Shown: positions 16,313-62,983, counted from the first letter of the stretch. The stretch is DNA of 64,000 bases from an uncultured virus (IMG/VR IMGVR_UViG_3300029309_000007) (IMGVR_UViG_3300029309_000007), one strand, 5' to 3'. Translations and numbers: made by a program. Notes: generated by a model not told the origin, from the letters alone.

Positions 16313-17821
16313 ATGATTATTACTGGAGAAGAAGTAAAAGAAAAACTGCTAGCCGGTATTAACTTGGTAGCAAATACTGTTCAGCCGACCCTTGGCCCAC
16401 AAGCCAAAACTGTTATTTTGCAGGGAGAACCACCAATTATCATCAATGACGGAGTGACGATTGCTAAATATGTTTCAGATAAAGACCCTTATGTTCAAAT
16501 GGGAGTTCAAATGGTGCAGAATCTTTCTTCTAAGGCTCAGGAATTAAATGGCGATGGGACAACCACTTCTTGTATTATTGCCAGAGCATTGTGTGAAGCA
16601 ATCCATAAGCAGGATATTTACAATTTGCATACGCTTCGTAAAGAAATTGAAGAAGCACAAGAATGCGTTTTGTCTGCTCTTGAAGAATTAGCAAAGCCTG
16701 TGGATGATGATAATATTTTTGATATTGCTACTATTGCTGCAAATAACGATGATTATCTTGGGAAGTTGATTTGGCAGGCTTTAAATTCTGTCGGTCGTGA
16801 TGGAATCATTACTGTTGAAGAATCACCAAACTACAAAACGAACCTAATTGTTCGTGAAGGTTTAGAAATTGATGAAGGTTTCCTTAGTCATCTAATGGCG
16901 AATGGGGAGGATGGAAAGGCTACCTATGCCAATCCCTTGATTTTTACATCAAACCTCGACATTAGAAATTTCAACATGATTTTGCCAATGCTTGAATATG
17001 CTTCATCCGAAAACCGCCCACTGATTATTTTCTGTAAAGGAATGGAAGGTTCGGCCATGAACAATGTGGTAATGAATCTCCTACAAAAAACCGTTCAGGT
17101 TTGTGTGATTACAGCACCTAACTTTGGTGATGCTCAAATTGATGAATTAGGAGACATTGTGGCTACTGTTGGTGGTCGCTTATTTACTGATGAAAGCAAC
17201 GATGAGCCGGAAAGAATCACCCCTACGGAGTTTGGAACCTGTGATAGAATTATCGTTTCAAAAGAAAAAACTACGATTGTTGGTGGAACGGGAGATGTTT
17301 CTGAAAGAATAGCCATGCTTAAGAAAACCTTTGAAGATACCGAAGACAATTATGTGAAGGCTCGTTTGAAGAAGCGTGTTTCAATTTTGAATGGCGGTGT
17401 GGCTACAATTCAAATCGGTGCATCTTCGCAGATTCAAATGCGAGAAACAAAGGAAAGGTTAGATGATGCGCTTAATGCTACAAAAGCGGCTTTGGCTGAA
17501 GGCGTTATTGTTGGTGGAGGTCTTGGCCTACTGCTTGCGAGAAAGAATCTTAAACTTGAAAAGACAGGGCATAATATTGTCTATGATGCTTTGGATGAAC
17601 CTATCCGAGCATTACTTTCAAATAGCGGATTAAATCCATGCGAAGAAACATTAAAATACACGGATGAAATAGGATTCAATGCGCTTACGGGAAAATTCTC
17701 AAACCTTCTTGAAGGTGGTGTGATTGACCCCGTTAAGGTTGTTAAGGGAAGTTTCAATTGTGCGATTTCAATTGCGCTATTGTTCTTAACTACTGATGTT
17801 GCAGTATTGGTGGAGAAATAA
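16313..17821 (+). CDS. groEL: group I chaperonin GroEL
   Basis: TLGP, INDGVTIAK, GDGTTT, APNFGD, DDALNATKAA, GVIDPVKV. No GGM tail. Confidence 0.95.
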   Translation: MIITGEEVKEKLLAGINLVANTVQPTLGPQAKTVILQGEPPIIINDGVTIAKYVSDKDPYVQMGVQMVQNLSSKAQELNGDGTTTSCIIARALCEAIHKQDIYNLHTLRKEIEEAQECVLSALEELAKPVDDDNIFDIATIAANNDDYLGKLIWQALNSVGRDGIITVEESPNYKTNLIVREGLEIDEGFLSHLMANGEDGKATYANPLIFTSNLDIRNFNMILPMLEYASSENRPLIIFCKGMEGSAMNNVVMNLLQKTVQVCVITAPNFGDAQIDELGDIVATVGGRLFTDESNDEPERITPTEFGTCDRIIVSKEKTTIVGGTGDVSERIAMLKKTFEDTEDNYVKARLKKRVSILNGGVATIQIGASSQIQMRETKERLDDALNATKAALAEGVIVGGGLGLLLARKNLKLEKTGHNIVYDALDEPIRALLSNSGLNPCEETLKYTDEIGFNALTGKFSNLLEGGVIDPVKVVKGSFNCAISIALLFLTTDVAVLVEK

Positions 17822-28100: not shown

Positions 28101-29771
28101 ATGATAATTAGCAGATGCATTGACAATAAAACAATATACACATCATGGAGAGAAAATGGCGAAAAGAAGGTAGCGGTTGAATTATTCGCACCATACTTCT
28201 ATTTGCCAGAAGATGCCCAAGAATTTGAAGAATACAAAATCGGTCGGGCCTCTTCTCGGCCTTTTCGTTATGAACATGGAAATTGGGTAAATCTTCAAGA
28301 AGAAAAACTTAAGCGTGTTTATGTTGAGCAATCAACAGATATTTACAATGCCAAGAAAATGTGGCCTAAAACATACGAAGCAGATGTTCCGTATCATTTC
28401 CGATATGCCGTGGATAAAATTGATGAAATGCCAGAATATAAACTGCGAAAGTGGTATTGGGATATGGAATGGCAACAAGGCGGCGAATATCACGATTGCA
28501 TTACAACAATTGTTGTTTATGATAACTACGATGAAAAGTATTACCAATGGTCATGGTTTCCCGAAGATGAATGGGTTCCGAATAAGCAACTTCAAACAAC
28601 TGATAATTTTCAGACAGGTTTTTGCTTTTCAGAAAAAAAGATGATTGAAAGTTTTATTTCTTTTATGACAGAAAAAGACCCTGATATGTTGATTTCTTGG
28701 TTTGGAAATTTTGCTGATGTGCCAATGTTGCTTAAGCGATGTTGTGCATTGGGAATCAACCCCTTGCAGTTATCGCCCATTGGCCGTGTAGAGGGCGTTA
28801 AAAGGACTTCTAAAGGCTTTGAATACACTAAAGGCGACGAAGGGTTCTCTTCAATCAAACAGCCCATAGGGGGCCGCATAACCCTTAACTTAGACCATGC
28901 TTTTGAAAGACAATGGAATGATTCGCAAAGAGGAACTTTGCCTTCTTTGGCTCTTGATTATGTTTCTTCCCTTTTGTTTGGCGAAGGAAAATCCAAAGAA
29001 ACAAAGTTTGCAGACCCTAACGAATTCTATCGTAGGGCTTGGTTGGAGGACACACTAAACTATTTAGATTATGCACTTCAAGATGTTAAACTTCTTGTTA
29101 AAATTGATGAAACGAACTTTTGTAGTGAAGCAATTATTTCATTACAGCGTTTGCTAAAAGCCCCATTCGATGCTTGCTTTTTCGCTTCGCACATGGGTTC
29201 AATTTATTTTATGCGAAATGCTTGGTGGAAAGCCCCAACAGGAAAGAAAGTAGAAAAGCGTGAAGAATATGACGGTGCTATGATTTATGACCCATTAAGC
29301 GAACAAACTCAGGGCTTACATCTTAATGTAGCGGCATTTGACTTTGCAGGGCTATATCCAAGTATGATGATTTCAAGAAACATTTCATGGGAAACAAAGT
29401 CAGAAGAACCGACAGAATTTGCCGTGAATATCTTAACGCCGAGAGACTTCAGCGATGTTAAACATGAGAAGATGTTGTATTACAAAACAGATAAACTTGG
29501 ACTTCTACCAAAGGCTGTTCTTGAATTAAAAGAGTTGCGAAACGAATACAAGGCTCTCTTAAAAGAAGCGAGAAAGAATGCGGATGAAGAAGAGGTTATC
29601 AAATGGAATAATAATCAAATGGCTGTAAAGCGTTTGATGGCTTCATTTTATGGCATTGTTGCCTTTCAAGGATTTGGATGGGCAGATGTTTCTTTAGCCG
29701 CAAGCATTACTGCAAGTGCAAGAGAAGCAATTAGATTAGCGGCATTTAAGGCTAAGGAGATGAATATATGA
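28101..29771 (+). CDS. polB: family B DNA polymerase, N-terminal part (3'-5' exonuclease, motifs A and B)
   Basis: WDME, FADVPML, YALQDV, FDFAGLYPSMMISRNIS, KRLMASFYG. Confidence 0.93.
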   Translation: MIISRCIDNKTIYTSWRENGEKKVAVELFAPYFYLPEDAQEFEEYKIGRASSRPFRYEHGNWVNLQEEKLKRVYVEQSTDIYNAKKMWPKTYEADVPYHFRYAVDKIDEMPEYKLRKWYWDMEWQQGGEYHDCITTIVVYDNYDEKYYQWSWFPEDEWVPNKQLQTTDNFQTGFCFSEKKMIESFISFMTEKDPDMLISWFGNFADVPMLLKRCCALGINPLQLSPIGRVEGVKRTSKGFEYTKGDEGFSSIKQPIGGRITLNLDHAFERQWNDSQRGTLPSLALDYVSSLLFGEGKSKETKFADPNEFYRRAWLEDTLNYLDYALQDVKLLVKIDETNFCSEAIISLQRLLKAPFDACFFASHMGSIYFMRNAWWKAPTGKKVEKREEYDGAMIYDPLSEQTQGLHLNVAAFDFAGLYPSMMISRNISWETKSEEPTEFAVNILTPRDFSDVKHEKMLYYKTDKLGLLPKAVLELKELRNEYKALLKEARKNADEEEVIKWNNNQMAVKRLMASFYGIVAFQGFGWADVSLAASITASAREAIRLAAFKAKEMNI

Positions 29772-29970: not shown

Positions 29971-30174
29971 ATGGATAAATCAGAAAAATATTATTTGGAA
30001 ACGATGAAAGAAATCAAGGAGATTAAGAAATTTATCAAAGAGGAGATAGATTCTCTTTATGCAGATTTACAAAATCTGCAAGAAACTCGTCGCTTGATTA
30101 CAGAATTGCAGGAAGAAGTAGCAAAACTCGCAGGTGAACCTGTCGGTATGTTGTTTTCAAAATACCGAGCGTGA
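29971..30174 (+). CDS. small coiled-coil protein between the PolB halves
   Basis: GGAGG RBS; heptad-like sequence. Confidence 0.55.
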   Translation: MDKSEKYYLETMKEIKEIKKFIKEEIDSLYADLQNLQETRRLITELQEEVAKLAGEPVGMLFSKYRA

Positions 30175-30178
30175 AACT

Positions 30179-31132
30179 ATGAAAGTGGTTTATGGACATA
30201 CAGATTCAATCTATGTTCAAATTGATGATGTAGATAAAGCAAAGGAAGCAATTAAGGTGATTGAAGATGAAGTCAGAAAAAGTTTCCCGAATGTTCTCGG
30301 ACTTGAACAGCATCCCGTCGTTTTGGAATTTGAAAAATTCTATTCGGCGTTGGGTGTCGGAACGACGAAAAACAGAAACGCAGGACTGATTATTTGGGAT
30401 GATGGTATTTATCTTGATAAACCAAAATTCACAATGACAGGATTTACTGCAAAGCGGGTTAGTGAAACCAAGTTGGCGAAAGAAACGCAAACAGATGTCC
30501 TAAAGATGTGGGTCGAAAATAAAAGCGAAAAAGAGGTCATTAAGCACTTGCATACTATCTATACAAATGTGTTAAAAGGAAATGTAGAATTGAGTGCGAT
30601 TGCTAAAAAAAGCAGATTGAAGCAACAAAGATTCAAAGTGTTTTGTCCCAACTGTAAAAAACAATTTGATATGCGAGAAGAATTGCCACTTGATTCTCAC
30701 ATTAAGCGGGTGGAAAATGGCATACCAGAATTTTGCGATACTCACAAAAAATATTTTGTTGGGCAACAAGCAGAAAAATACGATAAGAAATTACGCAAGA
30801 AAGTAAAATATAATAAGCGTGTTTCTGTTGCTTCTGGTGTGGCCGGTATTATGTATGCTTTGCAGAACAAAGAAATGAAGTTTGAAGATTCTTATGTGTT
30901 TATTCGCACATCTGATAATTTAACTTTCAAACATCCATTGACAGATGAGGAAAAGCCAGCAGATTATGTCGCAGGTATAACCTTTGAGGATTTGGCTTCT
31001 TATACGCCCGACTATGAATACTACGCAGAACAAGTTAAGAAGAAGGCCGAACCCGTATTTAATGCGATGGGCTGGGACTTGACGGCCATTAAAAGCGGCA
31101 AAATACAGAAAACATTGGAGGAATGGTTTTGA
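30179..31132 (+). CDS. polB: family B DNA polymerase, C-terminal part (motif C, thumb)
   Basis: VVYGHTDSIYV, LEFEK, KNR, DYEYYAEQ, and PIP-box-like QKTLEEWF. Confidence 0.9.
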   Translation: MKVVYGHTDSIYVQIDDVDKAKEAIKVIEDEVRKSFPNVLGLEQHPVVLEFEKFYSALGVGTTKNRNAGLIIWDDGIYLDKPKFTMTGFTAKRVSETKLAKETQTDVLKMWVENKSEKEVIKHLHTIYTNVLKGNVELSAIAKKSRLKQQRFKVFCPNCKKQFDMREELPLDSHIKRVENGIPEFCDTHKKYFVGQQAEKYDKKLRKKVKYNKRVSVASGVAGIMYALQNKEMKFEDSYVFIRTSDNLTFKHPLTDEEKPADYVAGITFEDLASYTPDYEYYAEQVKKKAEPVFNAMGWDLTAIKSGKIQKTLEEWF

Positions 31133-49738: not shown

Positions 49739-51367
49739 TCACCCCTGCAAAACCCAATGAGTCTTAACTGTGCAAGTGTTGAGCGTTCTCGGCATAACCG
49801 TTGCTTCAACAACCAATGGCCCTTTATCGTCAGGGATTGGGAAGTTATTTGCACTGATAAAGTAATCGTCAAACTTTAAGGTAATATTTTCTCCATTTGC
49901 CTTAGTAAAGACTAACTCAATCGTTTGGGTCGTATCCTCAGAATCATTCAAAAGAGCAGTATAAAGAGCATCATCGGAAACATGTCCAGTAAATGAAATC
50001 TCATAGGTTCTTTGGGCAGGAATTGATTCAGCAACATCCTTACTACCAACACCTATGAATCTTCGGTCTTGGAGATTATTGTTCATAGTCAAGGTTAATG
50101 AATTAATCTTCAAGAAAGTATTTCCTAATAATTTAAATGTGCCATCTGAGAAAAAGAACGGTTCTCTCGTTTCTGCTGCATTTGTCGCAGTTTCATAATT
50201 GATAAAAGTAGTTTCATCATCTACCCCTCTTCTTGCATCATAAACTTCATCTTGAGCAAGCGTGTGAATATTTCTTGTGCTTAAGTCAAGAGTCATTTTT
50301 ACCTCTTCGTTTTCGTTTGCAGTCATTGTTAAAGTATTAACTCGGCAACCCCTTGCGATTTTAACGAAGTTTAAATCTTCTGCCGCCGCATCGCTATCAG
50401 TCCTATATTGTGTTGCTGTTCCAGTCAATTTAGAAAGATTCTGTTCTAATGCAAAAGAAGGAAGTAAATCACTATCTTGTTCGTCAAAGGTATAAGTTAT
50501 TGCTTTTGATAGTGTAGTGCTTCCCGTTGGGCGGTCTAATTTGTGATAAAAGTCTAATTGTGCATCGCTGGCCTCAAAAGGAGTAATAGGAGGACAAATT
50601 TTATTGCCAATCGTTCTTCTAAAAATTGGGCCGGTTTCAACGATTCCTCCAATATTAGCATCATCCCCTGCCGCTACTTCTGCGGTTGATTCATTCATAG
50701 AACGAATCAAAAATGCGTTATTATCTCCTGAATCTGGCATAGTCTGTCTATGTGCATCAGTAGATAATGCGGTAGATAAAGCATCTGTGCTACAAATTAA
50801 AGATGTGCATTTACCTAAGAAATAATATAGCCATGTCCCTTGATTAGAAATAAACCCAAGATTGCCACCAGTAAAGGTAGTAATTCCTTTGTATTGATAT
50901 GTATAATTTCTTGAACCTCCGAGAGAAGTATTCAATTGCTTCATTTCTACTTCGCTTGTTGGGAAAGTGGCACTTTCAAGAATACCCAACCATTGGTCAG
51001 AAAGAAGTCTTTTTGCCGTAGAAACGGGAGCAGGGACAGGTGCGCCGTATGATTTTACAATGAAATAATCTGTTGAAGCCGCAGAAGCAGAAGGAGTAAT
51101 GGTAAAAGAATTAGCGTCATTTGCAGTAATTCTGTGAGTAGATTGAAGCGCATCCGAAGTATTGTATCTTTCTAAAAGGCAACCTTTGTAAAGATTTATA
51201 ATCAATTCAAAATCTGCATCAAAGGTAGCATTTACCTGAATAACAGATTGTGCCGAACCATCTAATGCTCCCCCACCGTCTTTTAATCCAACCCCAATGA
51301 ATAAATCATTCTCTGGGATAAATGTAATACTTGCGCCGCTTCCTAAAAATATGTCTGTATTTGTCAT
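49739..51367 (-). CDS. major tail (tube) protein
   Basis: LPSFALE, GCRVNTLTM, LTLTMNNNL, RTYEISFT; position in the tail module. Confidence 0.75.
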   Translation of the reverse strand: MTNTDIFLGSGASITFIPENDLFIGVGLKDGGGALDGSAQSVIQVNATFDADFELIINLYKGCLLERYNTSDALQSTHRITANDANSFTITPSASAASTDYFIVKSYGAPVPAPVSTAKRLLSDQWLGILESATFPTSEVEMKQLNTSLGGSRNYTYQYKGITTFTGGNLGFISNQGTWLYYFLGKCTSLICSTDALSTALSTDAHRQTMPDSGDNNAFLIRSMNESTAEVAAGDDANIGGIVETGPIFRRTIGNKICPPITPFEASDAQLDFYHKLDRPTGSTTLSKAITYTFDEQDSDLLPSFALEQNLSKLTGTATQYRTDSDAAAEDLNFVKIARGCRVNTLTMTANENEEVKMTLDLSTRNIHTLAQDEVYDARRGVDDETTFINYETATNAAETREPFFFSDGTFKLLGNTFLKINSLTLTMNNNLQDRRFIGVGSKDVAESIPAQRTYEISFTGHVSDDALYTALLNDSEDTTQTIELVFTKANGENITLKFDDYFISANNFPIPDDKGPLVVEATVMPRTLNTCTVKTHWVLQG

Positions 51368-51396
51368 GCCAAACTCCCCCTTTCCTAACTTACTTA

Positions 51397-51960
51397 CTAG
51401 GGAATGCTAATTGCGAATCTTTTTGCTTCTAATGTAATTTTGTAGCCAAACAGTCTTTTGCTTCTATCGTTGCTTTCGGTTCTTGAACCTACAAATAGTT
51501 GATTAAATCTTGTTCCATCGGAAGCAGTATAACCTCGTCGGCTTGTCTCAAGTGCGTGAACAGTTATCAGGTATAAATCCCTTAGCCTGTCTCGGCCAAA
51601 ATCGGGGTCTGTTGAACCTACCCCAACGGCTCTTTCATCGTGAATTGTCCTTAGATGTAAAGTAAAAGAATAAGTTTCATTTCTAAGGTCATAATGAATT
51701 GTTGGGTATTCAATATTTTGTGAATCTTCAAAAACAACAATAACATCACCTGCGGATAAATCATACCTTATGCCACGATTTTTTTGTAAAGTGCGAACAT
51801 CAACAAGGTTAGGCAAATCTGGTGTGCTTCCTAATTTACCAGCAGAGTTTAATGTCGTTCTTGAAGCATTCCAATTGGTTTGGATAATATCAAGAATAAG
51901 GCTAACTTCATCCAAGATTAGACACCGCCTTATCAATTTCTTTTTTAATTGCTTTACCAT
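51397..51960 (-). CDS. putative tail terminator / neck protein (start probably near 51915)
   Basis: Position before the tube gene; alpha/beta pattern. Confidence 0.55.
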   Translation of the reverse strand: MVKQLKKKLIRRCLILDEVSLILDIIQTNWNASRTTLNSAGKLGSTPDLPNLVDVRTLQKNRGIRYDLSAGDVIVVFEDSQNIEYPTIHYDLRNETYSFTLHLRTIHDERAVGVGSTDPDFGRDRLRDLYLITVHALETSRRGYTASDGTRFNQLFVGSRTESNDRSKRLFGYKITLEAKRFAISIP

Positions 51961-52090
51961 AGTCTTCTAAAGCAAACTTCATAATTTCGTCATCACTAAA
52001 TGTAAAGTCCATTCCGAGTATATCTGATAATTCTTTCATAGCCTTTGCCCTTTCCTTTTGCGCTTCAATGAAAGGGGTTATATTTAGCAT
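51908..52090 (-). CDS. hypothetical protein
   Basis: Track ORF within the late operon. Confidence 0.5.
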   Translation of the reverse strand: MLNITPFIEAQKERAKAMKELSDILGMDFTFSDDEIMKFALEDYGKAIKKEIDKAVSNLG

Positions 52091-52094
52091 AATA

Positions 52095-52691
52095 TCAAGC
52101 CTTAAATGCCTGTAAAAGTTGTTTAACCTGATTTAGCCTGTAAGTAGAATTTTCTGTATCTCCCACTTTTGCTAACTCTATGCCCTCTTGAATTAATTTT
52201 TCTGCTTGGGCAGCAATATTCTTTTTATTTTGTTGTTGTGTATTTGTAGGTAATGGAACTTTTTGCTGTTCTTGCATCTGAGTCGCTAATCTTGCTCCTT
52301 CGGCAATATTTTGTTGAAGTTGTGCTTGTTTTGTCTGTTCTTTCCTTTTTCGCCTTTCTTCCATTCTAAGTCTTCCTATTTCCTCGCTTTCTTTCCCAAC
52401 ATCTGCAAGAATTCTTTCATCAGGATTATAGTCAATATTAAAATTATGAGGTAAATTAGGAGCCGAAGGAACCTTTGCCATTTCTGTTTGTTGTTGGGCC
52501 GCTTGATTTGCTACTTCTCTTTGTTTTTGGGCCGCTTGAGTCTGCTTCATCTGTTCCATTCTTCTTTCTCTTTCTTCTCTTTCCTTTTTTGCGGCCTTGC
52601 TTTTTCGGCTAAGAAATTTAATTTTGATAATATCATCTTCGTTTAATTCCCGTTTAGCAATAACACTCATCCATTCGTTCATAAATATCAC
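52095..52691 (-). CDS. Gln/Glu-rich coiled-coil protein
   Basis: Low-complexity QQ/ERE sequence; AGGAGTGA RBS. Confidence 0.6.
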   Translation of the reverse strand: MIFMNEWMSVIAKRELNEDDIIKIKFLSRKSKAAKKEREERERRMEQMKQTQAAQKQREVANQAAQQQTEMAKVPSAPNLPHNFNIDYNPDERILADVGKESEEIGRLRMEERRKRKEQTKQAQLQQNIAEGARLATQMQEQQKVPLPTNTQQQNKKNIAAQAEKLIQEGIELAKVGDTENSTYRLNQVKQLLQAFKA

Positions 52692-52694
52692 TCC

Positions 52695-54011
52695 TTAATT
52701 TTCTATTAGGAAAACAATGTCTCCCTTTCCTGTAAGAATATCCATTCCTTCTTTTCTAAGAATATCATATTTTTCTTTGACTGAAATATTTCCGCCTGTT
52801 TCTGCAATAAGAATTGTTTGGTCGTCGTGTCTTAAAATTTCAGCCGCAACTAATTTTGTAGCGGCTTCATGGATAGGTGCAGGAACTCTTGAGTCTCCAG
52901 CAATATAGGAAATGATAATAGAATTTTGCGTATGGTAAGGATAATCCCGTAAGAAAAATATTCTTCCTTCGTCCTTGATAGTCCAAAAAGAACCAAGTCT
53001 TTTCAGGTCTTGCTTATCCGTAAATTTAGTAATTGTTGCTAAAGTGGGAACAGAAGTGTTAGTAGCAATAAATATAACATCCCCGCTAACAGTTCCCGTT
53101 GTAGCCAAACTTAAAGTAATTGATGTTGAAGAATTTATGCTTGAAATGGTTGCGGCGGTAGGAATATTGGTTCCCGATACAGCCATGCCAACAACTAATT
53201 TACTTGAATCTGCAACAGTAAGAGCAGTAGAAGAGGAAGAGGCTGAACATGATTGTTTAGTCTTAATTTTGACCTTGCATTCTGACCCGTCTTCTCCCGC
53301 CAACAGGGATGAAATGAGCAAAGTGGTGCTGTCTTCCGAGTCCTTTTGGGCAAAGAAAAGGTCAGAAATAGAAAGAGTATCAGAAATGAGGCTTTTTGCT
53401 GCAGTTGCTTTAGTAAAGGTTGAAGTCTTTGATGGAAACTGTTCGTTCACCAAAGCAACAATTTCATCATTCGTCGTCTTTATTCCATAAGCATTATTAA
53501 ATTCGCTGTTGCTTAAAGAACCACCAATTGCCGATTCTGATAGCATTTCAAATTCAGTTCCGTTATTTGGCAATTGCAAAACAATGGAATGTATGTCTCT
53601 ATAATTTTCAAGAAGTCCGATTTTTGCTTGAGCCGAAGCCAATTCTATGTATCTATTTCCTTGCCAAACTCTCAAAGAAACTACCTTTCTTAATTTAAGA
53701 GTTGTCAATTTGATAAACCCAACATAGCCACCATAATAAGTTTGCATCGGGTGATTTACAAATTCAAAATTATAATGTTCATCTTTGTGTAAAAGAGGAC
53801 GATAAGAGCGTTTTACTTTCTCATCAATCATTCCTTCTACTCTTTTAATTATTTCACCAACTTGTGATTCGCTCGGAAATGTAGAAGAAGTAAAAGCAGG
53901 AACTTGTAGCATATTTGCAACAGCAGACTTATCAGTATAAAATCCAGAACCTGTGGCATAGTCTACATTAATTGCAGTATAATCGCTCGGTGAATTTGTA
54001 ATGCCCATCAA
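52695..54011 (-). CDS. head-tail adaptor with an inserted beta domain
   Basis: IKRVEGMIDE; ISYIAG..VPAPIHEAATKLVA; insert LTVADSSKLVVGMAVSGTNIP. Confidence 0.7.
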   Translation of the reverse strand: MMGITNSPSDYTAINVDYATGSGFYTDKSAVANMLQVPAFTSSTFPSESQVGEIIKRVEGMIDEKVKRSYRPLLHKDEHYNFEFVNHPMQTYYGGYVGFIKLTTLKLRKVVSLRVWQGNRYIELASAQAKIGLLENYRDIHSIVLQLPNNGTEFEMLSESAIGGSLSNSEFNNAYGIKTTNDEIVALVNEQFPSKTSTFTKATAAKSLISDTLSISDLFFAQKDSEDSTTLLISSLLAGEDGSECKVKIKTKQSCSASSSSTALTVADSSKLVVGMAVSGTNIPTAATISSINSSTSITLSLATTGTVSGDVIFIATNTSVPTLATITKFTDKQDLKRLGSFWTIKDEGRIFFLRDYPYHTQNSIIISYIAGDSRVPAPIHEAATKLVAAEILRHDDQTILIAETGGNISVKEKYDILRKEGMDILTGKGDIVFLIEN

Positions 54012-56482
54012 ATCATCTCCTGTAATTCATCTTCAAGTTCTTTAATTCCTGCTCTTATTGAATCCATAAATGTAGCAAATTCACCTTTTCGTACTCTCTT
54101 GAATTTAGATACTCCTATTTTTGGTTGCCTAATAGGTCTAAAACCCTCGCCTTTTCCCGTTCCTCTCGGAATAAGCCTAGTTTCTGCTTCAACCAAAGAA
54201 AGTTGTTTATATACTGTAAATGTATATTTAGGGTTTCCTTCTCTATCTTTACCTAACTTGACTTTAATCATATATTTTGATAGATTTTTTAGAACCTTTA
54301 ATGAGTTTTTAAATGGAGATTTGCTTCCGCTTAGAAGAGAAATAATTTTCTTCTTGTCGTTTGCTTTTGCCGCATCAAAATATTTCTTAGCGTTCTTATC
54401 TCCCGTGATTTCTTTATATTCTTCAAAGCCTTTAATTTGTTTTACATTTCCTTTTCCAAAATCTAAACCAGATTTGAATTCCTTTTCTATCTTTCTGTGA
54501 GTTTTTCTAAGAGAGTCATATGTTTCCTTATATTTAGAATACATCTCATCAACAATCTTTTTGAAATCTTTATATGAAAAAGACTTCTTGCTTGCATCAA
54601 ACTGTAGTCCTGCTATAATGGCTTTTATTCTTTTTTCGCTTTTAGCAAACTCTTTAAACGCATATGATTTGTTCAACATTTCTTCTAAATCATATACCAT
54701 ATCGTCAATGTCAATCATCAATGACTTTTCGACATCATCAATAAATTGTTCTGTAAAATGCCCTTCTTTGTCTGTAATTCCTGCTTTAGCAAATATGCTA
54801 CGCCATTCAGGGCCCTTTTCTTTTATTTCTTCTAATTCTTTAATTTGCTTTGCTTTTTTATTTTTATCCATTTTTTCATCGGCTTGTAATGTTTGAATAG
54901 ACTCATCAATTGATTCATCTAACGCTTCTTGTAGCCTTAGAATAGGATTAGAAAGAATATCACCAATAGAAAACTTATCATTTATTGGTCTGACTATATC
55001 CATTCTTACATTTAGCCCCTTCAATTTTACTCTAACATTTCTTTTGTATTTTTCGGGAACTGCTAAATCTAACGCTGTCAAATCGCTACTTAAAACGATT
55101 TTATCTAAATCTCTGGCTATTTCTCTACCAAGCGCAATAACTGCACTATTTACTTCGTCTTTCTCTTTTTCAGATTTATTGAAAACTTTGCTTAATTCAT
55201 TAGAAATACTTGTTAGGTTTTTAGAAATATTTTTAAGTCTGTTTTCTTTTCTTCCCGTATCTCCTAAGAAATCGTAAGATTCAACGAGACTATCGACCTT
55301 TTCAGAAATTTTATCTAAAAACTCTTGTTTTAGTTCAAGTGTTGATTTTTTATCGCTCTTTTTTGCTTCAATTAACTTCATAGCATCAAAGCCAGTATTT
55401 TTCAACTGCGATACAAATTGATTAAATTCCTTTTTGTCGCCACTAAACAACTTCCCCGTTGCTTCTCCAACCTGTTTATCAATACTGATATTTTTGCTTC
55501 TCATGTTTTGAATGATATTTGCATAAATGTCAGTATAAGACGCAATTGCGGAACCCAATGTTCTGATAGATACTGCGACTGCTAAATCTTTTTCAGCCAA
55601 AGTCAATTTAGAAAGAGATTCTGCAACTTTTTCGCTTTGCCTTAATTGATTTTTAGTAAATTGAGTTATTTCCTTTCCACTATAGGAAGCCTTATTTTCA
55701 AGATAATTTAAAGTTTCTGGTGAGGTGGTAATAGATTTTGTTGCTCTATCTTGCACCTTAACAATTTTGTTTAATTTGATATTGTTGAAACCCAAGGTAA
55801 ACAATTTCAAAAGTTTAGTATCTACTTCTCTTTCTCTAATAGAATCAAATGCCTCGCTAGTATCAAAATCAATTTCATCTCCTTCTATATCTAAACCTTC
55901 AAAATTTAATTCTGTCTCATCTAACGAAATAGAGTAGGTGTTTTTATCCAATCCCGTTCTTTGTTTAAGAGGGCTATCCTTACCCACAGTCTCTCCACTT
56001 TTAATTTTGACATAATCTTCTAATTTATTCTTGTAGGCGGCAAATTCTTGTTGATTAAAGCCTTTATTAGAATATGAAACTGATTGTTCTAAATCTTCTG
56101 GTTCTTCTAAGATTCTTTGTCTAATTGAACCTCTTAATTCCTTAAGGGCAATATTTGGAAACATGGACTGTAAAGTTTCCACAATTTCTTTTCCTTTAGG
56201 ATTTAGATTGTCAATCTTTAAATTTTCCAATTGTGTATCTTTTATTTTTTTAATTGAATTTTTAATTAAATCTTTGAAATCCTTGGGTTTGTTATTTTTG
56301 ATAAAAGTTTCAGTTAAGTATTCTGGAATTTCTTCATATTCTTTATCGTTATCTTTTTGAACTAAATCCTCAAAAATAAACTTGTATAACTCTTGAATCG
56401 CATAGTCTTCATTAAACTCAATAGCGGGAGGATTTGTCCCACTTGCTGATTTAATGCGATAATAGAAGAGTTTCACCGGCAT
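54008..56482 (-). CDS. 824-aa Lys/Glu-rich helical protein of unknown function
   Basis: Long ORF, coiled-coil-like, no recognisable motif. Confidence 0.7.
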   Translation of the reverse strand: MPVKLFYYRIKSASGTNPPAIEFNEDYAIQELYKFIFEDLVQKDNDKEYEEIPEYLTETFIKNNKPKDFKDLIKNSIKKIKDTQLENLKIDNLNPKGKEIVETLQSMFPNIALKELRGSIRQRILEEPEDLEQSVSYSNKGFNQQEFAAYKNKLEDYVKIKSGETVGKDSPLKQRTGLDKNTYSISLDETELNFEGLDIEGDEIDFDTSEAFDSIREREVDTKLLKLFTLGFNNIKLNKIVKVQDRATKSITTSPETLNYLENKASYSGKEITQFTKNQLRQSEKVAESLSKLTLAEKDLAVAVSIRTLGSAIASYTDIYANIIQNMRSKNISIDKQVGEATGKLFSGDKKEFNQFVSQLKNTGFDAMKLIEAKKSDKKSTLELKQEFLDKISEKVDSLVESYDFLGDTGRKENRLKNISKNLTSISNELSKVFNKSEKEKDEVNSAVIALGREIARDLDKIVLSSDLTALDLAVPEKYKRNVRVKLKGLNVRMDIVRPINDKFSIGDILSNPILRLQEALDESIDESIQTLQADEKMDKNKKAKQIKELEEIKEKGPEWRSIFAKAGITDKEGHFTEQFIDDVEKSLMIDIDDMVYDLEEMLNKSYAFKEFAKSEKRIKAIIAGLQFDASKKSFSYKDFKKIVDEMYSKYKETYDSLRKTHRKIEKEFKSGLDFGKGNVKQIKGFEEYKEITGDKNAKKYFDAAKANDKKKIISLLSGSKSPFKNSLKVLKNLSKYMIKVKLGKDREGNPKYTFTVYKQLSLVEAETRLIPRGTGKGEGFRPIRQPKIGVSKFKRVRKGEFATFMDSIRAGIKELEDELQEMI

Positions 56483-56485
56483 TCC

Positions 56486-57139
56486 TCACATTAACCATTT
56501 AGCCCAAGCCGCACCTTTTTGAATTGCAGAACCAAGATGTAGGCCGCTTGATGGGGGTTCGTAAGACATTTGACCATTGTTCGGGTCAATCCAATATGGA
56601 CGACCATAGCCATCTGTTCCCGATGGAGGGACAGGGTAGCCAGAACCGTTATTCATGGCTCCCTGCATCTGTTGGTATTGTTGCGTTTGTCCGGTAATTC
56701 CAGCAACAGCCATCCCCGCCGAAGGCCCACCTGAACCGCTAAAACCTTGCGATTCCAAGTATTGTTGTTTAGCCAATTTTCGCTGGTTTATAACCTCAGT
56801 GTTTAAGGCAACTCCTAAAATTTGTTGAATGTCAAGTTCAATGTTTTCTTGAGTAATCTTTTCAAATTCTCTCATAGCGTCGGGATGAATTTTTAATCCT
56901 CCCGTAGTAGAATCCGTGGTAAATGCTAAACTTGATAGCATTTGTGAAACAACTCTTTGAACGACATCTTCCATTAATTTTTCAAATGCCTGTAAAAACT
57001 TCTCACCATGATATTGAAAGAATTCTTCTACATGATTGTCCTGCAAAGAAAGTAGATTATTTACATTCTTAAATTGCTGGTCGCTTTGGGCTTGAACTGC
57101 CCCTAAAACTGTTTTATTGCTTGTTCCAAATACCATCAC
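56486..57139 (-). CDS. helical protein with a WW-like segment and a C-terminal amphipathic helix
   Basis: PPSGTDGYGRPYWIDPNNGQMSYEPP; LGSAIQKGAAWAKWLM. Confidence 0.7.
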   Translation of the reverse strand: MMVFGTSNKTVLGAVQAQSDQQFKNVNNLLSLQDNHVEEFFQYHGEKFLQAFEKLMEDVVQRVVSQMLSSLAFTTDSTTGGLKIHPDAMREFEKITQENIELDIQQILGVALNTEVINQRKLAKQQYLESQGFSGSGGPSAGMAVAGITGQTQQYQQMQGAMNNGSGYPVPPSGTDGYGRPYWIDPNNGQMSYEPPSSGLHLGSAIQKGAAWAKWLM

Positions 57140-57774
57140 TTTTCACCGTCCTTCTTGTTTAGTAGTTCTTGAATACGCATATTAGCGTTTTGAATTTCAT
57201 TTGTTAGACGCTTGACCTCATCAATCGGCGTTTCCGTTTCTCTCATGTCGGGTGAGGTTATAATATATCCGATGGCCGACAGCGAAGCAATATCATTTTG
57301 GGACAGGGAGGTTAATGGCCCCTTTTTTACCATCTGGGGTATTTTTGGTCTTGGAATAAATGCTTTGAAATCTAAACCATGTTGGTCTGCAAGAATCTGT
57401 TGTTGTAGCATTTCCATTTGTTTATGAATAGAAGCATGTTTAGGACAATATGTTCCTCTTAGTGGTCTTCCCTTTTCTACACGGTCTAAAGGAATCGGCG
57501 GTCGAAGAAAATCACCTGCTTCCCAAATGTGGTGCATGCCACATACGACACATCTATCCTTTAGATTAAACTTATATCCGTATTTGATAAAAAGAATCTT
57601 TTTCTTTTCCGGCATAAGAACCTTAGTGATTTCTTTTAGTTTTTTCTTGGGCTTAATTGAATCATATTTATATTCTTCAATTTGTCCTGCGGCTCTAAAT
57701 TGTTGCAGTTTTGGCAAAAATGCCAACGCTGTTTGGTTGCTAATTAAGTTCGGTTGTTGATACATAATAATCAA
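57136..57774 (-). CDS. zinc-finger (CxxC...CxxH) and coiled-coil protein
   Basis: CVVCG..YCPKH. Confidence 0.7.
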   Translation of the reverse strand: MIIMYQQPNLISNQTALAFLPKLQQFRAAGQIEEYKYDSIKPKKKLKEITKVLMPEKKKILFIKYGYKFNLKDRCVVCGMHHIWEAGDFLRPPIPLDRVEKGRPLRGTYCPKHASIHKQMEMLQQQILADQHGLDFKAFIPRPKIPQMVKKGPLTSLSQNDIASLSAIGYIITSPDMRETETPIDEVKRLTNEIQNANMRIQELLNKKDGEK

Positions 57775-58433
57775 TAATCCTTTATTATTGTAGTAATTCC
57801 TTTATATACCATTTCTGGTTGTGATTTTGCTGATACAATATACTTGAAGCATGGTATTCCTTTATCGTTTAATTTTCTCATTCCATATTTAAAAGGTTCA
57901 AAGATTTCATGTTCATCTATTTCTTTTTCAGACTTGTGTTTTTCTCCCCATATGTCATATTTATTTGCCCAAATACTTACTGCCATAGGAAAATCTGAGT
58001 CTCTTTTCTTTTTACCGTTTGACCATCTATCTGAAATAATTGTGTCCACTAAAAATTTCCATGCTAACTGGTGGTCTAAATTTGAATTGCTATCTAAGTG
58101 TCGGTGGTCAATCATAAAAATAACATATTTGACTCTTCGTTCTCGCATATCTTTTTCCCATTCTTTCCAGTATATTGCTTCTCCGCCAATGTCTGCGCTT
58201 CTTACTGTATGGGATTCTCCGTCTATTTTAATCGTTTTTCTTGAGGCTCTATGCTTTCCAACAGTTCTTTCTTGTATTGTTGGCACTTCCCCTCTTGTTC
58301 TTAACTGATGACTTAATGTTGTTTTTCCTACCATTGTTGCCCCATAAACTCCAAAATTAATTGCGTGAATCTTTTTGTAAAATCCTATGATTGCTTCACC
58401 GACTAAAATAGCAAAGCCTGTCATTAATGACAT
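57771..58433 (-). CDS. Arf/Sar/Rab-like small GTPase
   Basis: G1 GATMVGKT, G2 RTVG, G3 DIGGE, G4 NKYD, G5 SAK; N-terminal hydrophobic helix. Confidence 0.88.
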   Translation of the reverse strand: MSLMTGFAILVGEAIIGFYKKIHAINFGVYGATMVGKTTLSHQLRTRGEVPTIQERTVGKHRASRKTIKIDGESHTVRSADIGGEAIYWKEWEKDMRERRVKYVIFMIDHRHLDSNSNLDHQLAWKFLVDTIISDRWSNGKKKRDSDFPMAVSIWANKYDIWGEKHKSEKEIDEHEIFEPFKYGMRKLNDKGIPCFKYIVSAKSQPEMVYKGITTIIKDY

Positions 58434-58648
58434 TAATGCCCCCACCCGTTTAACAAAGTGTCAAACAGGAAACCCATGATGTTTAAGTCAAAAACACCCA
58501 TGATATTTCCAAGCAAAAAGCCAGCAACGGTGCAAGTAATACCGTAAAGCCAAGCCTTTGCCTTAAGAAAGAAAATGTCAGCAGAATGCGCTCTCGTTTG
58601 ATTATAGGCGTAGTCGGATTCGGAGAATCCTAAAAAGTCGCCAATCAT
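58433..58648 (-). CDS. small membrane protein
   Basis: Hydrophobic WLYGITCTVAGFLLGNIMGVF; its stop overlaps the GTPase start (TAATG). Confidence 0.7.
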   Translation of the reverse strand: MIGDFLGFSESDYAYNQTRAHSADIFFLKAKAWLYGITCTVAGFLLGNIMGVFDLNIMGFLFDTLLNGWGH

Positions 58649-58656
58649 TTAATCAC

Positions 58657-59037
58657 CTACTGCAAAGCCGCTAAAAATTCATTTCCGATAGAATTTTCAG
58701 CCGTTTCGTAAGTAGGTTGTTGTGCAACAATAGAAGTCTTGTATGTTTCACGGATTTTATTTTTCTGTGCTTCTTCCTTTGACTTTCTTTCCCAGTATGC
58801 TTTAATCCTTTGGTCAAGCAAATACATTTCAATTCTATCATTAAGAGCAATATCAAATAGTGCTTTCAAAACCATAATAGCACCGACTGTAATTAACCCA
58901 AATAGAATCGCATGGGCCAATGTACCGTGTGGGAAACCTGTCCCATAATTAGCGTAAAAGAAAACATTTGCGCCGCTAACGGTTCCGACGAAAAGAATCG
59001 TCATAACCAAACGGGTTTCTGTATTTAATGCTGGCAT
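58657..59037 (-). CDS. two-TM membrane protein with a cytoplasmic coiled coil
   Basis: LVMTILFVGTVSGANVFFY and AILFGLITVGAIMVL. Confidence 0.72.
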   Translation of the reverse strand: MPALNTETRLVMTILFVGTVSGANVFFYANYGTGFPHGTLAHAILFGLITVGAIMVLKALFDIALNDRIEMYLLDQRIKAYWERKSKEEAQKNKIRETYKTSIVAQQPTYETAENSIGNEFLAALQ

Positions 59038-59328: not shown

Positions 59329-59356
59329 ACTTTCACCTATCCGTTGATAACATCAA

Positions 59357-59374
59357 CACCTATTTAAGAGGTGC
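59357..59374 (-). promoter_or_regulatory. TATA-like box inside an inverted repeat
   Basis: Minus strand reads CACCT-CTTAAAT-AGGTG, about 30 nt before ATG 59328. Confidence 0.4.
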
Positions 59375-59378
59375 GATG

Positions 59379-60377: not shown

Positions 60378-61709
60378 TCATTGAATGTTAGTGATTTTAC
60401 CCTGTCCCCTGAAGAAAGAACAGCCAACTTCACCAATTGTTCGGTATAAGGCTCTGTTTCCGAGAGTTCCGACACCAAATGGATTTCCGTTTGCGATACC
60501 ATCCTCAAAGTATTGGGTTGGTTTCATAACAGACAACCAAAGGTGGTCAGTATCAAGGAAAAGCATATCCGATAATTTAGTGGATGCACCGCCGGTTTGC
60601 GGCATATCCTTAACAGGAATCAAAGGAATATCGTAGTAGGTAGCCACACGGAAACCGACTTCTTGACCCTTTGTTCCACGAACACCGTTCACGGTTGGAA
60701 CAATTTCTTTTCTATCCATAAATCGCTCTTGACTCTGTAATAGGTCAGCAAGGGCTTGAATGGTATCATATCCAGTAAGAATGACCTTTGGAGAACCACC
60801 GGCAAGACGAAGGTTTCTAATCATGTCATTTATCCGAGTAAGAGTAAAAGAACGAACATCGCCCGAAGCATAGCCAGAACCAAAGTCCACTTCTGCATCA
60901 AGGAAAGAAGCGGCACTAAATCGCTCTTGGCCGTAAATTTTAGCATCAACGGTAGAAGCAGAAGCCCCAGTATCGCCTAATACGGTATCGCTGGCTAAAA
61001 TTTCATCACGGTTTGAAATAACCTTCATCAAAGAAGTGTAGTTGTTTCCGATGTTGGGTAAAGTGGATGTTTGATAGTTTTCAAGCGGCATAACCAGCAT
61101 TTTGTTTTGAACTTCAGCGTGGTGCTTACCCATATCTTCACGCATTTGCGCTCTAATATCGCCAATTCCATCGTCAATTTGAGCCATTTCCATAGCCAAT
61201 TCGCTGAAATCAAATTGATGTGCAATAACCTTTGGGCTCATGTTTAATTGGGCGTAGGTTGGAGCAATTGGGCCTAATCCGTCTTGTGCAGTTGAAAGAC
61301 CTGCATTTTCAGGAACACCACCGATTAAATCGGCTCTTGGCGAATCGTCGCCTAATTCTGCTAAAGTGGCATTTCCAGAGGTAGCAACAGAAAACAAATT
61401 TCCTGAACCACCAGCAGGACGGGACTTCAAAACTCGCCAACCACTTGAAGTATATGGTCGCTTTGAAATCATTGAAAGAGCATTCACTTCACGGTTAAGC
61501 ATAGACCAAACCTTCTGCCCATAAACGATGTTGTAAAGGGCGGAAACATCGGCAATTCCGCTTCCCGAAAAGGAAGGAGAACCATCATGTCCGGTATGAA
61601 TACCGCCAACAGCACCGGCTTGCTTTAAAAGAGCATTACCGGCAGGTAGGTTGTTAATTCCATAAGTCTGTGCTTCTAAGTCTGCAATTGTGTTAATATA
61701 TCCAGTCAT
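60378..61709 (-). CDS. major capsid protein (HK97-like)
   Basis: Follows the prohead protease; PKVIAHQFDFSE, YYDIPLIP, MLFLDTDHL, GEVGC..QGKITNI. Confidence 0.85.
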   Translation of the reverse strand: MTGYINTIADLEAQTYGINNLPAGNALLKQAGAVGGIHTGHDGSPSFSGSGIADVSALYNIVYGQKVWSMLNREVNALSMISKRPYTSSGWRVLKSRPAGGSGNLFSVATSGNATLAELGDDSPRADLIGGVPENAGLSTAQDGLGPIAPTYAQLNMSPKVIAHQFDFSELAMEMAQIDDGIGDIRAQMREDMGKHHAEVQNKMLVMPLENYQTSTLPNIGNNYTSLMKVISNRDEILASDTVLGDTGASASTVDAKIYGQERFSAASFLDAEVDFGSGYASGDVRSFTLTRINDMIRNLRLAGGSPKVILTGYDTIQALADLLQSQERFMDRKEIVPTVNGVRGTKGQEVGFRVATYYDIPLIPVKDMPQTGGASTKLSDMLFLDTDHLWLSVMKPTQYFEDGIANGNPFGVGTLGNRALYRTIGEVGCSFFRGQGKITNIQ

Positions 61710-61720
61710 CTTTAATCACC

Positions 61721-62983
61721 TCAAATTCCACGAACCATTTTGTGAATGTCTGACCAGTCCATATTGGCGACATCATCAACGGTTGGAACATTAATTGCAC
61801 TTTCTTCTTGTGCCTTGCGAATTTCGTTCTTTTCCGCAGTAAGAGACTTGCGGAGTTCACTAAATTCATTCTTAAGAGAAGCAATTTCCGAAGCGGCATC
61901 GTAGTTTTGCTTTGCGATGACATTTTCTCGGTTGTTCACTTCTTGAGCAAATCTGTCCTCAAAAGACTTTTTGAGGTTATCGTAAGCAAGAGCCTCCAAT
62001 TGCTCTTGGCGGAAAGCCTCGTAAGCCTTCTCAATGTTAGCAACGCTCAAATCAAGCGTTTCTAATTCATTGTTGTTGAATGCCTTAACAACGGGCATAG
62101 TGGTTCCTTTTGGTCGGCCACCTTCAATAATGATTCTATCAGCAGGTTCGCCAATATCAGGATTAGCACCGTCAAGAGTTGGAAGTGGGGCTTTCTTTGA
62201 TTCCATAAGTTTCTCATAAGAACCTGATTCAGTTTCCATGTCTTCCTCATCTTCCACCATTCGGTTTTCCACCATTCGGTTTTCCACCATTCGGTTTTCC
62301 ATATCGGCACTTTCCATTTCCTTATCTCCCATGGCCTTTTCATCTTCGGTCAAAGCCATTTCTTCTTCTTTTCTTAACGAATTGACTTCCTTCAAAAGTT
62401 CATCCAATTCGCCTAATGCTTTTTCTAGTTTTTCTTGTGTCATAACATCACCTGTTTTATCTTGTTTTAGTATGTCAAATCTCGCTTCGGGGTTAATTCC
62501 TTTTTCACAGATGGTAATTTCATGCAACTCCAATTTGCTAATTTCGTTGTATTCTCCCATCCTTTCGTGGCTTTTCTTTACTTTTCGTAATGCTTGTCCA
62601 CCAATGCTAAATGACCTTAACGACCCTTTGCGAATGCCTCTTCCTACCTCTTTTGCTTTTTCTATGTCATCCCTAAGTTTAATAACAACATAAAATCCGA
62701 CATCATCAACTTCCGATTTCCATAATCTTCCCGTTTTATCTCGGTATGAATCTACTACTTCTCCCACTTGAACATTTGAATGATTTGTCATTACATTTCT
62801 GAATCTTGGTTCTTCCATGAATTTTTTAACTGCGTCTTGTAAAGCCTCTAATGTGATTAAATCATTTTGTTTATCCACGATTTCAATGCTCGCATATCCT
62901 CCAATCATAAGGTCGTCTGCGCTTTTGAGAATGCTGAAATCGTCATTCCTTATCGCTAAGACACCTCCGTTCATGTGTTTCAA
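61721..62983 (-). CDS. HK97-family prohead protease with a C-terminal scaffold
   Basis: IGGYAS..VDKQND, H(SNVQVG), LRSFSIGG, LHEITI..GINPEA; acidic coiled-coil C-terminus. Confidence 0.9.
   Translation of the reverse strand: MKHMNGGVLAIRNDDFSILKSADDLMIGGYASIEIVDKQNDLITLEALQDAVKKFMEEPRFRNVMTNHSNVQVGEVVDSYRDKTGRLWKSEVDDVGFYVVIKLRDDIEKAKEVGRGIRKGSLRSFSIGGQALRKVKKSHERMGEYNEISKLELHEITICEKGINPEARFDILKQDKTGDVMTQEKLEKALGELDELLKEVNSLRKEEEMALTEDEKAMGDKEMESADMENRMVENRMVENRMVEDEEDMETESGSYEKLMESKKAPLPTLDGANPDIGEPADRIIIEGGRPKGTTMPVVKAFNNNELETLDLSVANIEKAYEAFRQEQLEALAYDNLKKSFEDRFAQEVNNRENVIAKQNYDAASEIASLKNEFSELRKSLTAEKNEIRKAQEESAINVPTVDDVANMDWSDIHKMVRGI
62252..62301. repeat. 15-bp tandem repeat, about 3.3 copies (MVENR in the protease-scaffold linker)
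   Basis: TTCCACCATTCGGTT at 62252, 62267 and 62282. Confidence 0.9.

Follow-up and report, generated by a model that had tools for sequence, protein, structure and literature searches.

What could a small GTPase with a hydrophobic N-terminal helix be doing among the head and tail genes of an archaeal virus? This question is raised by a 64,000-nucleotide stretch of DNA (hereafter, the window) from the uncultured virus IMGVR_UViG_3300029309_000007, in which a preliminary description, made from the sequence alone, noticed six tightly coupled open reading frames (ORFs) at 54008..59037. All six are indeed present, on the minus strand, with overlaps of 1 nucleotide (nt) or gaps of at most 9 nt between them. 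Judging by its gene content, the window belongs to a magrovirus, that is, a tailed virus of Poseidoniales (Marine Group II, abundant ocean archaea). Five of the six genes comprise a conserved unit, denoted here the cassette, which encodes, in this order, a protein with two transmembrane (TM) helices, a small TM protein, the GTPase, a protein with conserved cysteines and a histidine (Cys/His protein), and a Gln/Gly-rich protein. The reading favored here, with a probability of roughly one in three, is that these proteins form a virus-made, GTP-switched complex at the host cytoplasmic membrane that would breach or reshape this membrane for virion release.

Conservation and relocation of the five-gene block

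The cassette was traced in 80 IMG/VR loci that were fetched via the GTPase, many of them cut by contig ends. In these loci, tblastn detects the 126-amino acid (aa) membrane protein in 77 cases, the 71-aa membrane protein in 78, the GTPase in all 80, the Cys/His protein in 72 and the Gln/Gly-rich protein in 68. A control set of 80 loci was fetched via the capsid protein; 36 of these continue downstream of the capsid gene for at least 4.6 kilobases (kb), and every one of the 36 carries the full set of five cassette genes. In this group of viruses (lineage 1), the GTPase gene starts 1.6-2.4 kb downstream of the capsid gene. The arrangement of the cassette is beyond chance.

A second, diverged lineage was collected via the GTPase P0135. 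Among these 80 loci, there are 72 called GTPase ORFs, with 45-85% identity to P0135 and about 32% to the GTPase of the window, and yet the order of the genes is the same. The GTPase is preceded by membrane proteins of 143-201 aa (position -2) and 73-99 aa (position -1) and is followed by proteins of 292-357 aa (+1), 190-235 aa (+2) and a median of about 80 aa (+3), the last of which contains two TM windows in most of the loci examined. Each position is occupied by a single family (69/69, 70/70, 72/72, 72/72 and 72/72 from -2 to +2, and 68/72 at +3), with the proviso that up to 40 of the sequences counted had also served to build the family models. When the two lineages are compared using hhalign, the best match of each of the five proteins is its positional counterpart, and all 25 non-corresponding pairs score 2.2 or less. 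The scores of the corresponding pairs are 99.9 for the GTPase, 97.5 for the Cys/His protein (+1), 86.9 for the Gln/Gly-rich protein (+2; 94 columns), 28.6 for the 126-aa protein (75 columns; at most 0.6 with the other five positions) and 6.3 for the 71-aa protein.

The genomic location of the block differs between the lineages. Within 10 kb of the lineage 2 GTPase, the thermosome is the only non-cassette protein of the window that is found by phmmer. In three near-complete lineage 2 genomes (91-100% complete according to CheckV), the block and the capsid gene share a strand, and the block is situated approximately 20.2, 22.6 and 22.7 kb upstream, as computed from the locus ranges and the capsid positions. 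On its upstream side, the neighbors of the block are a chaperonin, a methyltransferase or a protein exceeding 2,200 aa; on the downstream side, a terminase is encoded at a distance of about 7.5 kb. At this distance from the capsid gene, the block is therefore not tied to the head and neck genes, and it relocates as a whole unit. The placement of the cassette between capsid and neck genes in the preliminary description is accurate for this lineage as far as the capsid side is concerned but does not extend to lineage 2; moreover, the gene next to the six ORFs on the other side, which encodes a 438-aa protein, has a single match in PHROG, phrog_17057, a family of unknown function.

A similar picture emerges from the comparison with the haloarchaeal virus HVTV-1, which shares the protease, capsid and tube genes with the window. 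In the 19-kb stretch around the HVTV-1 capsid gene, tblastn yields no match to any of the five cassette genes, to the 824-aa gene, which follows the cassette in the window, or to the 438-aa gene. This agrees with the earlier statement that small GTPases are not standard parts of tailed-virus morphogenesis modules. In the phage collection, the cassette has no blastn match and the GTPase has no tblastn match. Given the HVTV-1 comparison and this tblastn result, assembly of this type of virion does not seem to need the cassette.

These observations bear on the possibility that the cassette proteins are virion-associated, that is, packaged or located at the neck, and act in genome ejection into the next host. 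The position of the block between the head and tail genes in lineage 1 fits such a role, and ejection proteins of some tailed phages possess hydrophobic segments. Nevertheless, this role appears quite improbable given the lineage 2 block situated 20-23 kb from the capsid gene, the HVTV-1 stretch that lacks detectable cassette genes despite the shared capsid, protease and tube genes, and the lack of a match to any PHROG structural family.

The sixth ORF, encoding the 824-aa protein, was originally included in the cassette, but this assignment has to be revised. Conservation of the neighbors along with the GTPase, which the preliminary description proposed to check, holds for four of the five genes and fails for this one: the 824-aa protein is matched in only 2 of the 80 loci (tblastn, 1e-5). 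In 49 loci, the space between the Gln/Gly-rich and 438-aa genes is filled by a single ORF of 466-822 aa, and the 50 slot sequences, including that of the window, split into five groups with no BLAST link between groups, even though the GTPases of the respective viruses are at least 80% identical. Remote similarity between some of the groups is confined to the N-terminal 150-200 aa (hhalign 96-97), and all six slot proteins sampled, that of the window included, are rich in Lys, Glu and Asp. There is no counterpart of the slot gene after the block in lineage 2. By these comparisons, the 824-aa gene is best described as a fast-changing gene in a fixed position beside the cassette rather than a member of it.

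The rates of change of the cassette genes depend on how the loci are collected. In the GTPase-anchored loci, the median identities are about 84-85% for the GTPase and 69% for the capsid protein, with the GTPase ahead in 39 of 61 loci; in the capsid-anchored loci, the medians are 79% and 87%, respectively, and the GTPase is more conserved in 1 of 39. The notion that the GTPase is the most conserved gene was accordingly dropped as an anchoring bias, the ranking being reversed in the capsid-anchored set. The opposite rankings in the two sets imply some mosaicism between the head genes and the block. Between the lineages, the identity is 32-33% for the GTPase and 36-38% for the capsid protein. From these figures, the GTPase and the capsid protein seem to evolve at about the same slow pace, closely followed by the Gln/Gly-rich protein (77%), and change is faster in the membrane proteins (56-61%) and the Cys/His protein (56-66%).

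The evolutionary distances are also relevant for the trivial explanation of the cassette, namely, that the genes are neighbors without a joint function, that the GTPase acts alone, for example, as a nucleotide-dependent chaperone, and that the synteny simply reflects descent. In a mirror-tree analysis of the pooled sets, the GTPase distances correlate with those of the cassette neighbors at 0.44-0.73 and with those of the capsid protein at 0.12. Within each anchored set, this contrast vanishes, so that special co-evolution of the GTPase with its neighbors was rejected: the Spearman coefficients are 0.59-0.61 for the capsid protein, about as high as those for the neighbors (0.49-0.76), as the trivial explanation would have it. 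Still, the order of the five genes outlived both relocation and divergence to about 32% identity, in surroundings where, within 10 kb of the lineage 2 GTPase, only the thermosome is otherwise recognizable, and mere adjacency therefore appears very improbable.

The GTPase and its partner proteins

The 220-aa protein, by its motifs and its predicted fold, is a genuine small GTPase, in line with the preliminary description, which reported all five G motifs and an N-terminal hydrophobic helix. The G1 motif GxxxVGKTT, T61, DIGGE (85-89), NKYD (161-164) and SAK (205-207) are invariant in 17 of 17 close (lineage 1) relatives, and G35, G40, K41, T42, T43, D85, G88, W96, N161, K162 and D164 are invariant in 52 sequences from both lineages. 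Across the 52 sequences, G1, G3 and G4 are retained, and G5 varies in lineage 2 (e.g., MATK or SAR). The residue that follows DxGG is Glu in the window GTPase and Gln or His in other members of the family; this variation suggests that hydrolysis and its timing depend on a partner. In the AlphaFold2 model, the N-terminal helix is followed by elements in the order b1-a1-b2-b3-a2-b4-a3-b5-a4-b6-a5, which is the six-stranded G-domain fold.

Structural comparisons do not point to one family. Foldseek matches the model to Ras, G-alpha and Rab at E of about 2e-5, and in a VIA-align comparison with 48,161 chains, Rag-like, G-alpha, Arf6, SR-beta, SelB, Arf1, ARL15, Sar1 and Arl8 structures follow each other with Z scores from 12.1 to 11.0, with Rab6 and MglA at about 9.5. 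As the top matches are tied, the fold is that of a small GTPase, with no single family picked out.

A profile of the close relatives retrieves only 79 clusters at E of 0.001 or below among 1.84 billion representatives, so the family is isolated. When far members are included in the profile, the PDB search yields full-length matches to GerdArfR1 (8OUN, 1.2e-12) and Arl3 (3.5e-11). Because the far members could pull the result toward Arf, the search was repeated with the 52 magrovirus sequences alone, which gave 15 PDB hits, 10 of them small GTPases, with three RecA concatemers, matched through their repeated P-loops, among the others. Seven of the 10 small-GTPase chains belong to the Arf family (8OUN at 7.4e-7, 8OUM and five Arl8 chains) and the other three are Rab33B; these alignments cover the N-terminal half only (profile positions 16-123 in the case of 8OUN). 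The Pfam Arf model (PF00025) has no match to the window GTPase at E of 0.1 or below; the relative P0121 scores 16.8 bits against the cut-off of 22.3, and seven far full-length relatives, from P0168 (1.9e-15) to P0195 (2.1e-5), pass the threshold, whereas the magrovirus proteins do not. Our reading of these data is that the protein is distantly related to, and probably works like, the Arf/Sar/SR-beta side of the superfamily. In a scan of GTDB-genome contigs, which detects close relatives only and is no evidence that cells lack homologs, the GTPase has one match, with 80% identity, on the 12.2-kb contig NZMJ01000024.1 in a Maricaulis metagenome-assembled genome; most likely, this contig comes from a magrovirus and was binned wrongly.

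All members of the family have a hydrophobic N-terminal stretch of 25-30 residues, whose Kyte-Doolittle (KD) values are 1.55-2.12 for lineage 1, as in TM segments, and lower, 0.83-1.73, for lineage 2. AlphaFold2 predicts a helix at residues 2-26, with low pLDDT. By hydropathy, this helix could span the membrane or lie in it.

The two membrane proteins conform to the preliminary description, with the hydrophobic windows listed in Table 1. The 126-aa protein consists of two predicted TM helices and a tail of about 60 aa with about 10 Lys/Arg and 10 Asp/Glu residues, and the 71-aa protein combines a soluble N-terminal portion of 33 aa with one long hydrophobic stretch. The Cys/His protein had been described as a Zn-finger/coiled-coil protein. 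Its motif is C-x2-C-x31-C-x2-H, and across 63 sequences, C75, G79, C110 and H113 are invariant, so that three of the four putative ligands stand; the fourth, C78, is not invariant. The AlphaFold2 model of this protein (mean pLDDT 73.8) includes a core at residues 40-135 and a long C-terminal helix (183-210). This family numbers 598 proteins, none of them named, and occurs on marine contigs as long as 107 kb. ArfGAP is a C4 zinc finger with an arginine finger and its own motif spacing, and there is no ArfGAP among the Foldseek and VIA matches of the Cys/His protein.

The Gln/Gly-rich protein has a conserved MGxFG..N start and a central helical domain of about 100 aa flanked by low-complexity Q/G/M sequences; the pTM of its Atlas model is 0.24, and the sole match is a cluster of viral hypothetical proteins with a score of 0.85. 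More generally, in the ESM Atlas, this protein and the Cys/His protein match only unnamed viral hypothetical clusters, all below 0.9. The WW domain that had been suspected in the Gln/Gly-rich protein does not hold up: the PF00397 score is 13.6 bits against a cut-off of 26.9, and according to the alignment, the WW-like motif, along with the C-terminal helix, is confined to this lineage and missing in lineage 2. None of the four partner proteins has a significant match in Pfam, PHROG, NCBIfam or PADLOC, and a PADLOC scan of 11 proteins gave zero matches.

The affinity of the GTPase with SR-beta suggests a different use of the same anatomy, that is, a membrane platform unrelated to egress, which might anchor replication or assembly or promote SR-beta-like insertion of membrane proteins. 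The SR-beta chains tie with Arf in the structural comparison (Z 11.6, 11.2 and 10.7), and Pfam SRPRB is matched by 13 of the 32 family members scanned, with far relatives among them, although not by the window protein. The location of the lineage 1 block within the string of morphogenesis genes would suit an assembly platform as well. However, no SRX or longin-like partner was recognized with Pfam or VIA, the lineage 2 block is away from the head genes, and as indicated above, the cassette was found neither in the HVTV-1 capsid stretch nor, by its GTPase, in the phage collection. Such a platform can be considered a tentative possibility.

Genomic setting and gene junctions

The attribution of the window to a magrovirus is based on several lines of evidence. 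In the phage collection, tblastn matches to the capsid protein come from archaeal tailed viruses only, including the haloarchaeal HVTV-1 and HCTV, whose capsid genes are 26-27% identical to that of the window, and methanogen viruses. One relative of the GTPase, with 79% identity, bears an NCBI name that assigns it to Poseidoniales virus YSH_150918. In its plus-strand half, the window encodes RFC-like and ligase proteins, a thermosome-like chaperonin and a family B DNA polymerase that is broken into two parts. This combination of RFC-like protein, ligase, polymerase and chaperonin corresponds to the magrovirus gene set as given in PMC5434244, where the legend to Figure 2 also indicates split polymerase genes in magrovirus group B1.

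Table 1. Positions of the cassette genes and of other features of the window (coordinates count from the first nucleotide of the window)
Feature	Coordinates	Strand	Details
Family B DNA polymerase, two ORFs about 360 nt apart	28101-29771 and 30134-31132	+	
Tail tube protein, 542 aa	49739-51367	-	Phage_tube_2, 2.2e-15; also matches HVTV-1 gene 128
Downstream flank	49739..54011	-	438-aa protein, ORFs of 198, 60 and 187 aa, tail tube
Hypervariable slot gene, 824 aa	54008..56482	-	K/E/D-rich; adjoins the cassette, not a member
Gln/Gly-rich protein, 216 aa from ATG 57136	56486..57136	-	longest ORF 56486-57139, 217 aa
Cys/His protein, 209 aa from ATG 57765	57136..57765	-	longest ORF 57136-57774, 212 aa
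Divergent Arf-like small GTPase, 220 aa from ATG 58433	57771..58433	-	longest ORF 224 aa, GTG at 58445
Membrane protein 2, 71 aa	58433..58648	-	hydrophobic residues 34-62 (hydropathy)
Membrane protein 1, 126 aa	58657..59037	-	hydrophobic windows 9-29 and 37-66 (hydropathy)
Major capsid protein, upstream flank	60378..61709	-	phrog_24667, 3e-25; SU10_MCP, 4.6e-6
Protease-scaffold gene (prohead protease)	61721-62983	-	

The cassette is embedded in a co-directional string that consists of the prohead protease, the capsid protein, four small ORFs, the 438-aa protein, the tail tube and a tape-measure-like protein. For three of its genes, those of the GTPase, the Cys/His protein and the Gln/Gly-rich protein, the true starts are likely to be the internal ATGs given in Table 1 rather than the starts of the longest ORFs; in particular, the GTPase is most likely 220 aa long because the homologs and the Atlas records begin at the internal ATGs, and the record of the window protein itself (P0001) also has 220 aa. 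The stop codon of the 71-aa gene overlaps the ATG of the GTPase gene by 1 nt (TAATG), and so does the stop codon of the Cys/His gene with the ATG of the Gln/Gly-rich gene (TGATG). The TGA of the 824-aa gene overlaps the ATG of the 438-aa gene, and the remaining junctions are gaps of 2-9 nt. Both membrane protein genes are preceded by a GGTGA motif, located 4 nt before the ATG in the case of the 126-aa gene, which we take to be Shine-Dalgarno-like.

Upstream of the cassette, the nearest sizeable gap is 50 nt long (59329-59378, minus strand), precedes a 93-aa ORF and contains an AGGTGA motif and two short inverted repeats, CACCT..AGGTG and GTTGAT..ATCAAC. Most of the distinct upstream sequences of lineage 2 have 34-154 nt of intergenic DNA ahead of the block. 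Inspection by eye reveals, in one subgroup of this lineage, a GC-rich hairpin with an A/T box (TTAGTTATACTTAAA-like) after it and, in other subgroups, a very A/T-rich spacer of 70-150 nt and a small ORF that reads as ribbon-helix-helix-like. These lineage 2 features suggest that the block is a transcription unit of its own, which would be compatible with a host-takeover or superinfection-exclusion module that alters the envelope, secretion or division and is expressed apart from the late genes. In lineage 1, to the contrary, the nearest upstream gap is the 50-nt one, inside the co-directional late gene string, and PADLOC yields no match, which makes such a module rather unlikely.

Elsewhere in the window, the plus strand includes genes for a homolog of pyrimidine-dimer DNA glycosylase (4.8e-7) and a protein with weak matches to the TFIIB zinc ribbon and to helix-turn-helix domains (7092-7763 and 11926-12798). 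A ThiF-family E1-like protein (2e-18) is encoded two genes from a JAB-domain match (13567-14124 and 14714-15262, plus strand). The JAB match is weak (8.4e-4, below the cut-off), and the two genes may be parts of a ubiquitin-like modification system. The chaperonin at 16304-17821 (plus strand) is of the thermosome type (Cpn60_TCP1, 1.6e-46).

A possible role in virion release and comparison with known systems

Several features of the cassette combine to suggest a membrane-acting switch, namely, the hydrophobic N-terminal helix and the switch chemistry of the GTPase, the two (three in lineage 2) small membrane proteins, and the strict linkage of the five genes. If the analogy to Arf, Sar1 and SR-beta holds, the GTPase would be kept at the membrane, next to the two membrane proteins, by its N-terminal helix, and in the GTP state, the switch regions would bind the Cys/His protein, the Gln/Gly-rich protein or both. 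The assembled complex could then control a membrane lesion or deformation, with the 126-aa protein, which has two predicted TM helices and a charged tail, being a candidate pore or raft former.

Egress is ranked first among the possible roles of such a switch because no endolysin or holin family was detected among the 51 proteins of the window that were scanned, in agreement with the preliminary description, which had seen no endolysin, and because the 126-aa protein has a holin-like architecture. The ranking also takes into account that the block was not found in the HVTV-1 stretch compared and that we found no explanation of host exit in the magrovirus literature. The more specific version, in which magroviruses use the cassette as their egress machine and an Arf-like switch lets GTP set the timing of a complex that breaches the membrane, is doubtful.

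There are also observations that weigh against release as the function of the cassette. The resemblance of the 126-aa protein to holins would be one of architecture only, and none of the cassette members matches a holin, endolysin or defense family in Pfam, PHROG, NCBIfam or PADLOC. Between the lineages, the homology of the 126-aa proteins appears weak, and the correspondence of the 71-aa proteins seems to be only positional. In 22 of about 68 lineage 1 loci, the GTPase and Cys/His genes are separated by one or two additional ORFs of 101-204 aa (the 11 tested contain no Pfam family above threshold), so that tight coupling of these two genes is not essential. The GTPase is below every curated threshold in the Pfam and NCBIfam scans (bit scores against cut-offs: Ras 15.5/21.6, MMR_HSR1 18.2/21.9, Roc 14.9/27, TIGR00231 23.6/42.5), and the mean pLDDT of its AlphaFold2 model is 61, dropping to 36-54 over residues 31-90, the half that contains the P-loop and switches. 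The Cys/His protein has no fold match in the PDB (best Foldseek E of 2; best VIA Z of 4.6) and, being devoid of a recognizable fold, shows nothing that would mark it as a GTPase-activating protein, an exchange factor or an effector. Overall, confidence in a role in egress is low.

Full-text literature searches on magroviruses, on Arf GTPases of archaeal viruses and on GTPases of Poseidoniales viruses retrieved no description of the cassette. Neither 'GTPase' nor 'GTP-binding' is found in the main texts of PMC5434244, PMC11706807, PMC10160649 and PMC8651126 or in the supplements of PMC5434244 and PMC10160649; the annotation tables of PMC11706807 may bear on this claim.

To our knowledge, the way in which archaeal tailed viruses leave their hosts is unknown, and the holin proposal of PMC11706807 concerns a different order, Adrikavirales. 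Against this background, a conserved, relocatable five-gene block built on a putative membrane-binding GTP switch is a concrete, cloneable candidate for egress. If the more specific version, with the cassette as the egress machine, is true, it would be the first release mechanism known among archaeal tailed viruses and would place a case of Arf-type membrane biology beyond eukaryotes and Asgard archaea.

Among the known systems, holin cassettes resemble the block in that they include small membrane proteins of the late region, and the 126-aa protein shares with holins the TM helices, two in this case, and the charged C-terminal tail. The difference is that here there is no endolysin nearby and no match to a holin family; furthermore, we know of no holin system that includes a GTPase. 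A holin is a small protein with a TM helix, a charged C-terminus and an endolysin gene next to its own; a definition of holins is also given in PMC11706807, where the predicted holins belong to Adrikavirales rather than to magroviruses. SR-beta is similar in having an Arf-related G domain and an N-terminal hydrophobic segment at the membrane, with Z scores of 11.6 (2fh5_B) and 11.2 (5ck4_A); it differs in that no partner similar to SR-alpha or SRX was found here, the window GTPase has no SRPRB match, and the Z scores are tied with those of Arf, G-alpha and Rag. The Arf GTPases of Asgard mobile elements, described in PMC11529989, are likewise Arf-type GTPases encoded in an archaeal region resembling a mobile element, but they cluster with bona fide Asgard and eukaryotic Arf, and the region is integrated; they lack a cassette of membrane proteins and do not belong to a tailed virus.

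The closest parallel is with the Arf family itself (GerdArfR1, Arl8, Arl3, Arf1/6 and Sar1). According to bioRxiv 10.1101/2024.02.28.582541, 8OUN and 8OUM are structures of the Asgard ArfR protein GerdArfR1, and an N-terminal amphipathic helix coupled to the interswitch toggle is what defines Arf. The window GTPase likewise has a predicted N-terminal helix before a G domain of about 190 residues, TxG in Switch I, a G3 motif DxGG whose Asp is followed, 11 residues further on, by an invariant Trp, and NKxD in G4, and the Arf proteins are its best solved relatives by profile and are among its tied top structural matches. Unlike these proteins, it contains Glu in place of the catalytic Gln, about six extra interswitch residues compared with 8OUN, and an N-terminal helix whose hydrophobicity (KD up to 1.9) exceeds that of typical amphipathic helices, and it is encoded by a virus of a euryarchaeal-type host rather than by an Asgard archaeon or a eukaryote. 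If this affinity is real, the range of Arf-like GTPases would extend beyond Asgard archaea and eukaryotes.

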